Shown: piece after piece, positions 23,793 to 28,395 of the stretch
How positions within the stretch are numbered: the first letter of the stretch is position 1
Layout of the letters: every line of letters begins with the position of its first letter
NCBI GenBank assembly: GCA_944350345.1
Contig: CALVOP010000005.1
Span: 2,575-66,574, forward strand
Source of the DNA: an uncultured Bacilli bacterium
GTDB lineage: Bacteria; Bacillota_I; Bacilli_A; RF39; UBA660
Length of the DNA stretch: 64,000 nucleotides
Direction: 5' to 3'
The notes under the pieces: generated by a model
Told to the model about the DNA's origin: nothing
The model's input: the letters and a program-made list of their open reading frames with translations, nothing else
Database searches by the model: none
Program-made: the position numbers and the translations under genes

Positions 23793-25451
23793 ATGAAAAC
23801 AAACGATTTTGATTATTTTTTGCCTGAAAATTTAATTGCTCAAAGTCCTTTGGAGAATAGAAGTTCTTCAAAGCTTTTAGTTTTGGATAAAATTACTGGT
23901 GAAATTATTCAAGAGAAGTTTTTTAATATAATAAATTATTTAAATAAGGGAGATGTTTTAGTACTTAATAATACAAAAGTAATACCATCTAGAATATACG
24001 CTATAAAAGAAGATACAAAAGCATCTATTGAAATATTGCTATTAAAGGAAATTGATAAAGACGTTTATGAGTGTTTGGCACGAAAACAAAAAAGATTAAA
24101 AATTGGAACCAAATTAATATTTTCTAATGAATTAACTGGAACAGTAATAGATATAAAAGAAGAAGGAATAACTCATATTAAATTTGATTATAAAGGCGTA
24201 TTTTTAGAAATAATAAGTAAAATAGGTACTATGCCATTACCGCCTTACATTCATGAAAAACTTAAAGACAAAGATAGATACAATACAGTTTATTCTAAAA
24301 TAAATGGTAGTGCTGCAGCACCAACTGCTGGGTTGCACTTTACAAACGAAATATTAAAAGAAATTGAGAATAAAGGAATAGAAGTGCTTTATGTTACATT
24401 ACATGTTGGACTTGGCACATTTAGGCCTGTAAATGTAGAAGACGTTACTAAACATGTTATGCATTCAGAAGAGTATGAAATAACTGAAGAAGTTGCTAAT
24501 AAATTAAATAAAGCTAAAAGTGGAAAGAGAAGAATCGTTTGTGTTGGTACTACAAGTGTTAGAACATTGGAAAGCAATATTAGCAAATATGGTGAGTTTA
24601 CTAAAACAAAAGAAGAAACTAGTATATTTATTTATCCAGGATATAAATATAAAGCAGTCGACGCATTAATTACTAATTTTCATTTACCAAAAAGTACTTT
24701 ACTTATGCTTGTAAGTGCATTATCTAGTAAAGAGATTATTATGGATGCATATAAAGAAGCTATTGATTATAATTATAGATTTTTTAGTTTTGGTGATGCA
24801 ATGTTTATTACTAATTTGAGCAATAATTATAAAAAAATAATCAAAAAAGTAAATAGTTATGAAAAGAGTAATTATAATTATTTTAAAATTATTAAAGGAA
24901 AAAACAATATTTTAATTTCAGCACCACACGCTTATAAGCACATTAGAGATGGAAAAGTGAAAAGTAATGAGTATAATACAAGTAATATTGTTAAAATATT
25001 AAAATATTTTACTGATTCTCACATAATATATACTGATAAACCTACAAAGGAAGACCCTAATTTTGATGTTAAAAATGAATATAAAAATGTTTTAATTCAA
25101 TATATAAAAGAAAATAATATTAAATACTTTATTGATATACATGGATATGTAGATGCTAAAAGTGATTTAATAATAGGTACAAATGATAAGAAAAATATAA
25201 ATAATGATTGCAATTTGTTAGAAAATATATATAATATATTTTACTATAATTTTTCTACTAATATATTAATTGATAAGAAATATAAAGCATCTAATAACGC
25301 TTTGTCAAAATGCGTTAGTGAAGAAACTAATATTTATGCATTTCAGTTTGAAATTAATAAAAATTTTAGAAAAATGAAAAGGAGAAAAAAGAGTTTTAAT
25401 AAAACAATTAAAAGTCTAATTAGTGTTATTAAGTATATTGAGGGGAGATAA
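23793..25451 (+). CDS. queA: S-adenosylmethionine:tRNA ribosyltransferase-isomerase (QueA) fused to a C-terminal ~210-aa amidohydrolase-like domain
   Basis: QueA motifs are FDYFLPENLIAQ, PLPPYI, APTAGLHFT, VCVGTTSVRTLES, LITNFHLPKSTLLML and FFSFGDAMFI. The ORF then continues without a stop into a domain carrying ISAPHAYKH and FIDIHGY. GGAG lies 7 nt before the ATG at 23793. Confidence 0.85.
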   Translation: MKTNDFDYFLPENLIAQSPLENRSSSKLLVLDKITGEIIQEKFFNIINYLNKGDVLVLNNTKVIPSRIYAIKEDTKASIEILLLKEIDKDVYECLARKQKRLKIGTKLIFSNELTGTVIDIKEEGITHIKFDYKGVFLEIISKIGTMPLPPYIHEKLKDKDRYNTVYSKINGSAAAPTAGLHFTNEILKEIENKGIEVLYVTLHVGLGTFRPVNVEDVTKHVMHSEEYEITEEVANKLNKAKSGKRRIVCVGTTSVRTLESNISKYGEFTKTKEETSIFIYPGYKYKAVDALITNFHLPKSTLLMLVSALSSKEIIMDAYKEAIDYNYRFFSFGDAMFITNLSNNYKKIIKKVNSYEKSNYNYFKIIKGKNNILISAPHAYKHIRDGKVKSNEYNTSNIVKILKYFTDSHIIYTDKPTKEDPNFDVKNEYKNVLIQYIKENNIKYFIDIHGYVDAKSDLIIGTNDKKNINNDCNLLENIYNIFYYNFSTNILIDKKYKASNNALSKCVSEETNIYAFQFEINKNFRKMKRRKKSFNKTIKSLISVIKYIEGR

Positions 25452-25453
25452 TT

Positions 25454-26323
25454 ATGAGCGAAGATATTAATTTTGTTGAAAGATATGATGAACTTTTGGA
25501 AATTAAACCTAACTATGGTTATGATAGGGTTTTGCCACCAGTTAAATTTAATTATGTTGGATTTGAAATTGAAATAGCAGTTAATTTTGATCGTGGTAGA
25601 TATTCTTTTATCAGAACTATGTTAAAAAAAATTAAAAAGCTTGTTGGTGAAAATGGTTATTTTGTTAAAGATGGTACTATATTAGGTGACTATTCATTTG
25701 AAATTGTTTTAGATCCAATGAGTATAAAGAAATCTGTTAAAATATATAGGGATTTAATGAAAATAGTTGAATTTAGTGATGGAAGTATTTGCTTTGATAA
25801 AGAACATAACTGTGGATTACACTTAAATTTTAATCAGTTTGATATTGAAAATATCGAAGTGTCTCATCAAAGGTTAATGCTACTTATTAATCAAAAAAGT
25901 CAGTATTTTGAAGAAAATATATATAAAAGAAGTTATTATGAATTTGACTTTAAAAAATATCTTGAATTTCAAAAAAATGTTGCGGATAAATATATAAGTG
26001 TAAACTATTTAAATAAGAAATTAGTTGAAGTAAGAAATATTAAGACACATTTATCTTCTAAATCTTTAGAAAGTATAATTAGGGATATTATTAATGCATT
26101 ATTTCCAGATAAGTTAAAAGATGTTAAAGATATAAAGCATACTAAGAAAATGAAAAAAATACTTAGTGAAACATTTCAAAATAATAATAGTAAATTAATA
26201 AAAGAAAGCCTTAATTCTAATTTATTGATTATTGATTTTAATGAAAAAAATCCAAAGATTATTTTACCAAATGACAAAATTAAAAAAGTCATAAAAGAGG
26301 TGAAAAATGATGAAAAAAATTGA
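25454..26323 (+). CDS. glutamine-synthetase-like amidoligase ('Amidoligase_2'-type COOH-NH2 ligase)
   Basis: Motifs: VGFEIEI (25556-25576), KDGTILGDYSFEIVLDP and NCGLHLNF (25808-25831). GAGGGGAG RBS. It starts 2 nt after the queA-fusion stop. Confidence 0.6.
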   Translation: MSEDINFVERYDELLEIKPNYGYDRVLPPVKFNYVGFEIEIAVNFDRGRYSFIRTMLKKIKKLVGENGYFVKDGTILGDYSFEIVLDPMSIKKSVKIYRDLMKIVEFSDGSICFDKEHNCGLHLNFNQFDIENIEVSHQRLMLLINQKSQYFEENIYKRSYYEFDFKKYLEFQKNVADKYISVNYLNKKLVEVRNIKTHLSSKSLESIIRDIINALFPDKLKDVKDIKHTKKMKKILSETFQNNNSKLIKESLNSNLLIIDFNEKNPKIILPNDKIKKVIKEVKNDEKN

Positions 26324-27206
26324 TGCATGGTTGTTTTATTCGGAATACTCATATAATAAGAAAATTGAAAGTGGATATATTGATGAGATTGTTAGAAAAG
26401 CAAAAGATGAATATGGAATAAATTTAGAAGTTAAAAATATACATAAATTCACTTTGATAAGTGGTGAAGAAAATAAACTTTTATATGATGGGGTTGAAGT
26501 GACTGAATTGCCTAAAATTGCGATTTCTAGACGTTATGAGATATATTTATTTAGACAGTTTGAACTTTTGGGTGTTAAAGTTTTTAATAATGTTCAATCT
26601 ATGATTGATGCGAGAAATAAGATGAAAACGCATCAAATGTTAGCTAATTCTGGTGTTAAAACGCCTAAAACTGTTTATATAGTTCCTAAAAGAACAGTAA
26701 TGAATATAAAATATGAAGATGTTTCAAAATTATTAGGAAAAAAGTTTATTTTAAAATGGATTTATGGCTCTCAAGGAACTTTTGTACATTTAGTAGATAA
26801 TGAAACTGATTTTAATGAATTAGTTTTAAAGTATCAGGGGAAAGTATTATTTCAAGAGTTTATCGAAGAAAGTTTTGGCTTTGATATAAGAGCTTACGTT
26901 TTAGGCGGAGAATATGTTGGCTGCGCAGTTAGAAAAAGTTCAAGTGGTGACTTTAGAAGTAATTTAGCAAAAGGTGGATCAGCACTTAAATTTGATAAAG
27001 AAGATGAAATAAAGAATTTAGCTGTTCAAGCGGCAAAAGCAGTAAATTTGGATATATGCGGCGTGGATATACTTGTTGGCAAAGATGGATATTATATTTG
27101 TGAAGTAAACGCGATTCCGGGCTTTAAATCAATTTCAAAAGTTAATTCTATAAATGAAAAAGATTTAATTTTAAATTTAATTCGTAAAAAATTAGATGAA
27201 AAATAA
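26307..27206 (+). CDS. RimK-family ATP-grasp ligase (alpha-L-glutamate-ligase-like)
   Basis: Motifs: [68 protein letters not shown] and CGVDIL...[12 protein letters not shown]. It overlaps the upstream stop by 17 nt. Confidence 0.85.
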
Positions 27207-27241
27207 ACAATATTATGAAATTGTAATATTGTTTTATTTTT
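27205..27241 (+). terminator. AT-rich hairpin + T-run after the ATP-grasp gene (putative terminator)
   Basis: aaacaatatta-tgaaattg-taatattgttt followed by tattttt. The stem is 11 bp but almost all A/T. Confidence 0.35.
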
Positions 27242-27267
27242 GGTATTATATATTTGGTGAATTTGAT

Positions 27268-28395
27268 ATGGATTTAGAGTTTAAAGTGCTAAAAAAAGAT
27301 AGTAAAACTAAAGCTAGGTTAGGTGAATATAAGACTAAATGGGGAGTTCATAAAACACCTATGTTTATGCCTGTTGGTACTCAAGCTACTGTTAAGACTC
27401 TTAGTTCTGATGATATAATTAGTGTTAAAGCTGATACTATTTTATGCAATACTTATCATTTGTGGCTTAGACCTGGTGAAGATGTAGTTCATATGGCTGG
27501 TGGTTTGCATGAATTTATGAATTATAAAAATGGACCTATATTAACTGATTCTGGTGGCTATCAAGTTTTTAGTTTGGCCGATAAAAAGGATATTCACGAA
27601 GAAGGAGTTTATTTTAAAAATCATTTATCTGGAGAAAGATTGTTTTTAAGTCCTGAAAAAAGTATTGAAATACAAAATAAACTTGCATCTGACATTGCAA
27701 TGAGTTTTGATGAGTGTCCACCTTATCCTTGTACTCATGAGTATATGGAAAATAGTATTAATAGAACTCTTAGGTGGGCTAAAAGAGGAAAAGAAGCTCA
27801 TAAAAAAAGTGATACTCAAGCATTATTTGGAATTGTCCAAGGCGGAGAATTTGAAGATTTGAGACGCGAAAGTGCAATTAAAACTGTGGAAATGGATTTT
27901 GATGGTTATAGTATTGGTGGAGTAAGTGTTGGTGAAAGTAAAGAAATTATGTATAAAGCAATAGATTACGTTATACCTTATTTACCTGAAAATAAACTTA
28001 GGTATTTAATGGGAGTAGGTGACCCAATAGATTTAATTGAAGGTGTGATGCGTGGAGTTGATATATTTGATTGTGTTAGTCCTACTAGGCTTGCTAGACA
28101 CGGAAACGCTTATACTAGATGTGGTAAAATTAATTTAAGAAATAATAAGTATAAAACTGACTTTTCACCTATTGAGGAAGATTGTGATTGTTACGCGTGT
28201 AAAAATCATACTAAAGCTTACATACGTCATTTAATTACAAGTGATGAAACATTGGGAGCGAGACTTTTATCAATACATAATATAAGGTTTTTAACAAAAC
28301 TTATTGAAGATATTAGATCTAATATTGAAACAGATACTCTTGTTGAATTTAGAGATGAATTTAAATTAAAATATTATGGAGATAAAAATGAATAA
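27268..28395 (+). CDS. tgt: queuine/preQ1 tRNA-ribosyltransferase (tRNA-guanine transglycosylase)
   Basis: Motifs: [47 protein letters not shown], the zinc motif CDCYAC...H, and SIHNI. GGTGA lies 7 nt before the ATG at 27268. The upstream extension in the ORF track (27196) is spurious. Confidence 0.95.

Follow-up and report, generated by a model that had tools for sequence, protein, structure and literature searches.

A hydrolase-amidoligase-RimK cassette in the queuosine operon of uncultured gut Bacillota, a candidate for reversible glutamyl conjugation of preQ1

To our knowledge, the bacterial synthesis of queuosine (Q) from preQ1 by Tgt, QueA, and QueG or QueH is considered fully mapped, and we know of no bacterial decoration of Q other than glutamyl-Q. 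The latter is the product of GluQRS (YadB), a truncated class-I glutamyl-tRNA-synthetase paralog that esterifies the Q diol via Glu-AMP. Several other families make or break amide bonds. Enzymes of the Amidoligase_2 type convert a carboxylate to an acyl-phosphate and then couple it to an amine, and glutamine synthetase (GS)-like ligases such as PuuA gamma-glutamylate primary amines. Members of the RimK family (RimK, CofF, and MptN) add L-glutamate to the alpha-carboxylate of a terminal Glu, while FGase, PghP, and AstE enzymes cut N-acyl-Glu or gamma-glutamyl amide bonds. Here, we describe a locus from an uncultured Bacilli bacterium in which predicted relatives of these families are encoded between queA and tgt. 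The locus occupies positions 23793-28395 of a 64-kb stretch of contig CALVOP010000005.1, called the window below, whose numbering is used for all coordinates. It encodes QueA with a C-terminal hydrolase domain, a putative amidoligase (protein X), a RimK-family ligase, and Tgt. We tentatively propose, at a probability of about 0.4, that the cassette attaches glutamate or oligoglutamate reversibly to the aminomethyl group of preQ1 and that the hydrolase linked to QueA takes the tag off again.

The product proposed here would resemble glutamyl-Q in being a Glu adduct on a queuosine-family base in tRNA. The enzymes, in contrast to GluQRS, are GS-fold and ATP-grasp ligases, which work through an acyl-phosphate and usually form amides, together with a hydrolase; the aminoacyl-tRNA-synthetase-like domain tRNA-synt_1c had no match in any of the four products, which places them outside the GluQRS type. 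A ligase that adds glutamate, an extender, and a hydrolase that takes it off again are also found in folate (FPGS and gamma-glutamyl hydrolase), F420 (CofE/CofF), and PuuA/PuuD metabolism, where PuuA, a GS-like ligase, acts on a primary amine and CofF belongs to the RimK family. This likeness is one of analogy only: the first and last enzymes of the cassette differ, its proposed substrate is a tRNA-modification precursor, and one of its components is fused to a tRNA-modifying enzyme. Amidoligase_2 enzymes occur widely in phages and in cassettes predicted to modify peptides or bases, and their usual partner in phages is a class-II glutamine amidotransferase, whereas the partner of X is an FGase-like hydrolase. 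Our literature search returned nothing relevant that links queuosine, queA, or tgt with amidoligase, RimK, ATP-grasp, or FGase, and no novel glutamyl/preQ1 modifications; hydrolase-QueA and hydrolase-amidoligase fusion architectures were not found either. Although the component families are known, their assembly, the QueA fusion, and the placement in a Q operon seem not to have been reported before. A 2024 survey of Tgt fusions and neighborhoods covered only transporters (PMC11130926).

The four open reading frames (ORFs) of the locus are co-directional (Table 1), and their arrangement agrees with what the original prediction had described, namely, a QueA ORF that reads past ...FFSFGDAMFI (here for 212 aa without a stop), a 289-aa X with GFEIE, EIV, and CGLH motifs starting 2 nt after that stop, a RimK-family ORF overlapping the X stop by 17 nt, and a weak hairpin with a T-run followed by a tgt gene with its own ribosome-binding site (RBS; GGTGA). 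The ATG of X (25454), 2 nt past the QueA TAA, is preceded by a GAGGGGAG site. The ATG of the RimK gene (26307) sits 17 nt 5' of the end of the X stop codon (TGA, 26321-26323), which creates the overlap, and is preceded by AAGAGGTG. The RimK-tgt spacer is 61 nt long and contains the A/U hairpin and T-run; the hairpin folds no better than shuffled sequences (z = -1.47), was not called in a terminator scan of the region, and is probably a poor terminator. Promoter-like matches across the region were not more numerous than in shuffles, and the site at 23739-23767, identified from its consensus match alone, is likely the operon promoter. Taken together, the 2-nt gap, the 17-nt overlap, a promoter-like site only 5' of queA, and the weak hairpin before tgt point to four products from one operon. 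The true start of tgt is placed at ATG 27268 by its GGTGA RBS, Tgt homology, and alignment to relatives. A longer tgt ORF from 27196, which overlaps the RimK end, was rejected as a mechanical extension, as homology and the RBS favor the downstream start.

Table 1. Features of the queA-tgt cassette region (window numbering)
Feature	Coordinates	Strand	Details
Promoter-like site, sigma-70-like TTTACA-17-TATAAT	23739..23767	+	11/12 consensus match; directly 5' of queA; best of the region
QueA domain	23793..24812	+	aa 1-340 of the fusion; PF02547 3.6e-132; NF001140 464.8 bits; RBS and ATG
Predicted FGase / gamma-polyglutamate (gamma-PGA)-hydrolase-like zinc amidohydrolase domain, 212 aa	24813..25451	+	In-frame C-terminal fusion to QueA
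Protein X, predicted Amidoligase_2-type GS-fold ligase, 289 aa	25454..26323	+	Foldseek, hhalign, motifs
RimK-family ATP-grasp alpha-L-glutamate ligase, 299 aa	26307..27206	+	PF08443, TIGR00768
Weak all-A/U hairpin, then T-run	27200..27240	+	Fold -10.6 kcal/mol over 71 nt; z = -1.47
Tgt	27268..28395	+	TIGR00430 509.6 bits; start ATG 27268

The QueA fusion ORF (23793-25451) starts with an ATG behind AGGAG, and an in-frame TTG at 23772 is also present. Its QueA part is full length and belongs to the family at the equivalog level: Queuosine_synth (PF02547) matches aa 11-346 of the fusion, and the equivalog models NF001140 (cutoff, 324 bits) and TIGR00113 (427.7 bits; cutoff, 267.45) cover aa 8-347. 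Both QueA and Tgt look canonical by these measures. An assembly, frameshift, or sequencing artifact was excluded as the source of the fusion, since about 18 GTDB species share the fused ORF, at 557-562 aa, and its dN/dS is low; for the extra domain compared with that of locus L011, the ratio is 0.10. In the species with the same QueA fusion, the X proteins are 55-99% identical.

In direct scans, the domain that follows QueA reached no Pfam or NCBIfam threshold, and its own best Pfam match was a weak one to Gamma_PGA_hydro (E = 0.018; 15 bits, cutoff 22). In sequence and profile searches, the domain and its family matched PDB sequences at chance level only. The family comprises 20-22 sequences, drawn from the N-terminal halves of relatives ~490 aa long, from standalone proteins of 215 aa, and from QueA fusions at other loci; a word-indexed homolog search with the domain gave seven proteins and missed the fusions, which were recovered by local BLAST and the GTDB scan described below. 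Among 20 family members, 7 match FGase (best, 1.6e-6), 7 match Gamma_PGA_hydro, and 2 match AstE_AspA, and the standalone homolog P0085 has a precomputed PF05013 domain. An AlphaFold2 (AF2) model of the domain (pLDDT, 93.3; pTM, 0.91) had as its top Foldseek matches 2odf (Atu2144, which we take to be an FGase-family protein; E = 4.7e-7, TMq = 0.64) and the YndL gamma-PGA hydrolase 5onj, followed by succinylglutamate desuccinylase (AstE, 2bco), zinc exopeptidases, and M14/M28 peptidases. Matches to purine nucleoside phosphorylase also appeared and were attributed to a shared fold, as the hidden Markov model (HMM) matches and the His/Asp/Glu pattern favor an FGase-type enzyme. By its modeled fold and the HMM matches of its family, then, the extra domain is predicted to be an FGase / gamma-PGA-hydrolase-like zinc amidohydrolase. 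This agrees with the amidohydrolase assignment of the original prediction, except that the profile-HMM support comes from family members (FGase and Gamma_PGA_hydro) and not from the domain itself. The domain thus shares the fold of FGase (HutG), PghP-YndL, and AstE and differs from them in being below the Pfam threshold and fused to QueA, with relatives that are fused to an amidoligase.

Conserved residues of the hydrolase family include SAPH39, R45, K50, D81-P-N83, D108-x-H110, Q178-x-E180, and R186. In the family alignment, H39 is invariant and D108, H110, and E180 are at least 90% conserved; these His, Asp/His, and Glu positions could supply the metal ligands and the catalytic base. In the N-terminal domain of P0092, an FGase~X fusion of 479 aa (here and below, a tilde denotes fusion in one protein and a slash denotes separate genes), H110 is replaced by Y (INIYG) and E180 by G (QIGI). 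The joint loss of the two residues is expected if both are catalytic, and the hydrolase domain of P0092 is probably inactive. The closest standalone relatives, P0084-P0087 (215-225 aa, 30-39% identical), form a separate group. In the single context examined, that of P0086 (L005:7042-8648), the neighbors are nucleotide-metabolism genes (NT5C, dCMP deaminase, NUDIX, and MazG), from which a nucleobase- or nucleotide-related substrate may be suspected for this branch.

Protein X had no Pfam match even at E <= 10 and no NCBIfam match in direct scans, and its matches to PDB sequences in sequence and profile searches were at chance level. All 81 of its homolog clusters come from metagenome-assembled genomes (MAGs) of the "Bacilli bacterium" type, and none has a precomputed Pfam domain. 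An X-family HMM run over 1.84 billion representatives returned only 48 proteins, the most distant of which (P0122-P0127, P0130, and P0132) exceed the PF12224 gathering threshold. When the X family was aligned with PF12224-bearing proteins by hhalign, X residues 33-220 matched at 98.4% (E = 4.8e-15). The GFEIE, DG..G...FEIV, and CGLH motifs of X are invariant over 29 homologs, with G36, E38, E40, D73, E83, C120, G121, H123, E192, and R194 as invariant residues, and G36, E38, E40, E83, C120, G121, H123, E192, and R194 align with invariant columns of the PF12224-bearing set; the sole difference lies in the second His, which is N125 in X. The AF2 model (pLDDT, 84.6) gave YbdK (1r8g), 1tt4, and glutamine synthetases of types I-III as top Foldseek PDB matches (probability, 1.0; E down to 3e-5), and the top 30 matches in BFVD were mostly phage proteins annotated "Amidoligase enzyme" (E down to 1e-8).

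These results indicate that X is a divergent Amidoligase_2-type GS-fold ligase with a predicted carboxylate-amine ligase activity. The assignment made in the original prediction therefore stands on motifs, fold, and hhalign, while a direct Pfam HMM search fails to recover it. X shares the family fold and the motifs GxExE, DG..G.EIV.P, CGxH, Y..VN, and ExR but has CGLHxN where the family has CGLHVH, is missed by the Pfam HMM, and carries its own basic C-terminal domain of ~90 aa. This helical/beta extension (about aa 200-289) and the hydrolase domain have isoelectric points of 9.6-9.7, compared with a window median of 6.3, which is weakly consistent with RNA contact. No relatives of X were found in IMG/VR, which argues that the cassette is not phage borne. 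Duplicated ligases were also seen: P0089 (734 aa) joins FGase, a degenerate X, and an X in one protein, and in two loci (L027:6839-8167 and L029:6846-8165), X is followed by FGase~X', where X' is 30-34% identical to the window X. Such duplications suggest that some lineages carry out two ligations in succession.

The third protein is a RimK-family ATP-grasp ligase, as had been predicted. It matches PF08443 (2.3e-41; 141.9 bits against 21) over profile positions 1-186 of 188 and TIGR00768 at 183 bits (cutoff, 143.4), and the nearest solved structures are E. coli and Pseudomonas RimK, with an ATP-grasp core ~35% identical to that of E. coli RimK. It stays below every equivalog cutoff tried (S6-specific RimK, LysX, MptN, and CofF); for the S6--L-glutamate ligase model NF007764, the score is 122.9 bits against a cutoff of 331, which leaves it outside that group. 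By analogy with the family, it would probably add Glu to the alpha-carboxylate of a terminal Glu. No acceptor of the S6 or LysW type is encoded nearby. The cassette RimKs form a clade of their own, monophyletic with respect to the nearest outgroups and coextensive with the cassette, which excludes separate RimK recruitment into the different cassette types. They were discrete also in a search of 5.8 billion proteins, in which identities of 46-99% were followed by a drop to 40% or less. The nearest outgroup genes are tandem RimK pairs in Clostridia, whose contexts are uninformative. Tgt clears its equivalog cutoff as well (TIGR00430; cutoff, 306.75 bits), and its FDEC and GGVSVGE motifs align with FDEC and GGLAVGE of the bacterial Tgt structure 10fb. 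The two motifs contain the Cys/Val pocket residues that distinguish preQ1-type enzymes (Z. mobilis C158 and V233) from queuine-type ones. This pocket says only that Tgt is a standard bacterial enzyme, the kind that tolerates preQ1 analogs.

To see how the cassette is distributed, we ran a pattern scan over one genome per GTDB species, which yielded 35 X loci that were typed by tblastn and ORF tracing. All 35 species are uncultured low-GC gut Bacillota labeled Bacilli, Tenericutes, or Erysipelotrichia, and some X-bearing genomes are evidently mislabeled Muribaculaceae. The window form, QueA~FGase / X / RimK / Tgt (type A), is found in about 18 species. Four loci have QueA / FGase~X / RimK / Tgt (type B), two have QueA / X / FGase~X' / RimK / Tgt (type C), one has all five genes separate (type D), and two are without RimK (type E). 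In the remaining eight (type F), FGase~X or FGase / X occurs, and neither queA nor tgt nor RimK lies closer than about 6 kb. Metagenome contigs likewise include both queA-linked and unlinked situations. The hydrolase is present in every variant, so that the invariant core consists of the hydrolase and X, which are often fused, and RimK is dispensable. In the X tree, type A makes up one clade, and all other types, linked and unlinked, are intermixed in the sister clade. The cassette adjoins queA and/or tgt in 27 of the 35 species with varying outer flanks (RNase HIII-cvpA-trx in the window and L001; ruvA-ruvB in L008). The predicted linkage to QueA and Tgt is supported by these 27 loci, by the rearranged architectures, and by a fusion that extends across a clade. 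It is qualified by the eight unlinked, RimK-less pairs and by the restriction of the QueA fusion to that one clade. In comparisons of the window with close relatives, all five segments (QueA, the hydrolase domain, X, RimK, and Tgt) had dN/dS values of 0.04-0.10 and are under strong purifying selection.

Some loci hold additional genes. In 7 of 11 unlinked loci examined (a set that includes non-GTDB metagenome contigs), all from one subclade, a small Cys/His-rich CotD-like ORF of 87-112 aa is the immediate neighbor of FGase~X, on its upstream side in some cases and on its downstream side in the rest (L004:7581-7847, L006:9581-9877, L007:3800-4063, L030, L031, L033, and L039). Its match to Spore-coat_CotD (E = 0.0024) is below threshold, and the window and all queA-linked loci lack it. 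The other unlinked loci are flanked by unrelated housekeeping genes (infB/lepA, thyA/folA, and glf). Two type A loci (L016:3551-4315 and L019:3645-4331) carry an extra standalone FGase-like paralog (~228 aa, ~30% identical) directly 5' of queA~FGase, and in L019, an 870-aa Gly-rich surface-type protein is encoded between RimK and tgt (L019:7811-10423).

A related MAG, L032, carries a different version of the cassette between nearly identical flanks. When L032:4215-8930 was compared with window positions 23793-28395, the DNA was 92-97% identical through queA up to position 24811 and again from the tgt start onward (queA, ~92%; tgt, ~96%), while identity was only 52-67% across 24849-27125. The break points are sharp, and position 24811 is exactly the end of canonical QueA. 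The L032 cassette is of type B; in protein sequence, identity to the window counterpart is 35% for the hydrolase, 46% for X, and 40% for RimK. Rapid evolution was excluded as the cause, as within-clade rates match those of queA and tgt; because these rates are ordinary, we read the difference as an allele-like swap, in which one cassette lineage took the place of another while the flanks stayed conserved. The swap cuts both ways with respect to function, and its one side is that two very different versions have both been kept at the site. Divergent alleles in near-identical hosts are also a hint that the attached group may differ between strains.

In these comparisons, the hydrolase, X, and RimK form one evolutionary unit, which appears to be cotranscribed with QueA and Tgt in most species and is fused to QueA in one large clade. 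As the hydrolase is fused either to QueA or to X, it ties hydrolase, ligase, and QueA together. We propose that the three enzymes form an amide "writer / extender / eraser" set acting alongside Tgt and QueA in queuosine synthesis, and that the substrate shared by all would be the primary 7-aminomethyl amine of preQ1. X would couple the carboxyl group of glutamate, or of a similar compound, to this amine, and RimK would extend the tag by alpha-linked glutamates. The conjugate would be a retained or protected form of scavenged preQ1, as the free base and/or after insertion by Tgt. QueA requires the free 7-aminomethyl amine of tRNA-bound preQ1, and the QueA-tethered hydrolase would strip the tag at the point of use, leaving QueA with tRNA-bound preQ1 whose amine is free. 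The presence of the hydrolase in every variant and its attachment to an enzyme that needs the free amine fit a transient, reversible conjugate better than a final decoration. Bacterial Tgt tolerates bulky substituents on the preQ1 amine both in vitro and in vivo (PMC9561289, PMC10103133). That the cassette acts with the Q pathway in some way seems to us slightly better than an even bet. The proposal in full, in which preQ1 as free base or at tRNA position 34 is converted to an (oligo)glutamyl conjugate by the Amidoligase_2-type and RimK-type enzymes and released by the QueA-fused hydrolase, is more doubtful.

Several considerations weigh against reversible conjugation of preQ1. The link to the Q pathway is guilt by association, and in 8 of the 35 species, FGase~X (or FGase / X) stands off queA/tgt, without RimK, in varied housekeeping contexts. 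The other side of the L032 swap is that a cassette can persist at this site through exchange via conserved queA/tgt flanks even if its position is not selected. All queA-linked cassettes may descend from one ancient insertion kept by such exchange, and because of this, position is weaker evidence than the count suggests. Rfam found no preQ1 riboswitch across the whole 64-kb window, and no Q-precursor transporter is visible in it. If the free base were released, one would sooner expect the hydrolase on Tgt than on QueA, and a protein combining ligase and hydrolase would be prone to futile cycling unless the substrate forms differ. Glutamate as the amino acid used by X is suggested solely by analogy with the partner enzymes.

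The same synteny and fusion evidence could mean that the ligases build a stable, undescribed hypermodified nucleoside (aminoacyl- or oligoglutamyl-preQ1, epoxyqueuosine, or Q at position 34), the reading favored in the original prediction, and that the hydrolase only trims the chains. Amino acid adducts on tRNA 7-deazaguanines have precedents in glutamyl-Q and in the preQ0-lysine intermediate of archaeosine synthesis, and the divergent alleles of L032 and the window could reflect diversified end products, for example, for evading nucleases that cleave Q-containing anticodons. An acylated preQ1 amine would, however, block QueA, which is intact and hydrolase fused; after QueA, only a secondary amine and a diol are left, and these would be poor or unprecedented acceptors for GS-like and RimK-type ligases. 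With the hydrolase in the invariant core and RimK dispensable, removal fits better than decoration, and we consider a stable end product quite improbable. We give similarly little credence to the synthesis or turnover of a small peptide-like metabolite unrelated to queuosine (a glutamyl di- or oligopeptide or an N-acyl-glutamate), with the QueA fusion due to neutral loss of a stop codon between neighboring genes of a compact, AT-rich genome. In its favor, small-molecule substrates are well known for GS-like ligases, RimK-family L-amino-acid ligases, and FGase-type hydrolases, a single clade has the fusion while the hydrolase is X fused or free elsewhere, unlinked copies exist, and the nearest outgroup RimK genes are in unrelated contexts. 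Yet the cassette has stayed between queA and tgt through rearrangement, domain shuffling, duplication, and allele replacement, no transporter or other metabolic partner is conserved with it, and the fused hydrolase domain is under purifying selection.

Modification of a protein or peptide, which we regard as unlikely, would involve C-terminal or side chain glutamylation reversed by a deglutamylase, as in RimK/S6 and TTLL/CCP, with a place in the queA-tgt operon owed to history and coexpression. The closest characterized relatives of the ATP-grasp ligase are S6-glutamate ligases, and cassettes of Amidoligase_2, ATP-grasp, and peptidase genes were reportedly predicted by Iyer et al. in 2009 to be peptide-tagging systems. 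The eight species with FGase~X away from queA/tgt, the CotD-like ORF beside FGase~X in 7 of 11 unlinked loci, and the sporulation genes of the window organism (see below) could also be explained by a protein target. But no acceptor with an acidic C terminus is encoded in or beside the queA-linked cassettes, and the CotD-like gene is absent from both the window and the queA-linked loci. The CotD match itself is subthreshold, and the adjacency is limited to one subclade with conserved synteny. Protein tagging would, moreover, leave unexplained both the QueA~hydrolase fusion of about 18 species and the position of the cassette between consecutive pathway enzymes.

The window as a whole has a G+C content of ~25% and is a chromosomal housekeeping region (tmk, comEC, secDF, relA, mutS, hisS, aspS, and others). 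The cassette operon is flanked in it by a thioredoxin gene and by a small membrane-protein gene. A 602-aa protein encoded at 20854-22662 (+) has a single N-terminal transmembrane segment and two tandem-repeat families (...NSQNAIHTDLNNTRNHLGNMIT... and ...TLTTHANQTKTSLNNLSTVTNGIK...). It gave many off-diagonal BLAST matches against relatives, and the repeat number therefore probably varies between strains. The sole above-threshold Rfam match in the 64 kb is a 6S (SsrS) RNA at 36457-36635 (+), at 47.4 bits against 46.4. By eye, we noted sporulation-type genes at 48012-48986 (-), 62247-63218 (-), and 63277-63600 (-), a set made up of a SpoIVB-like peptidase, a SpoIIP-like amidase, and a fragment resembling germination protease, which suggests that this low-GC organism forms spores.

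The taxonomic range of the cassette is narrow, which, together with the unlinked copies, limits the finding. If reversible conjugation of preQ1 is correct, the cassette would represent a new, reversible branch of the queuosine pathway, which would yield either a natural 7-deazaguanine nucleoside or base not seen before or a novel means of trapping a scavenged micronutrient. A so far uncharacterized branch of the large Amidoligase_2 family would thereby gain its first candidate substrate context, and RimK-type ligases a new class of acceptor. Should the cassette tag a protein instead, the QueA fusion would serve as an instructive false positive of "Rosetta-stone" inference. Members of the gut community exchange Q precursors as micronutrients, which the host ultimately needs as well, and the cassette offers a testable lead for new 7-deazaguanine chemistry or for the hoarding of Q precursors by gut bacteria.

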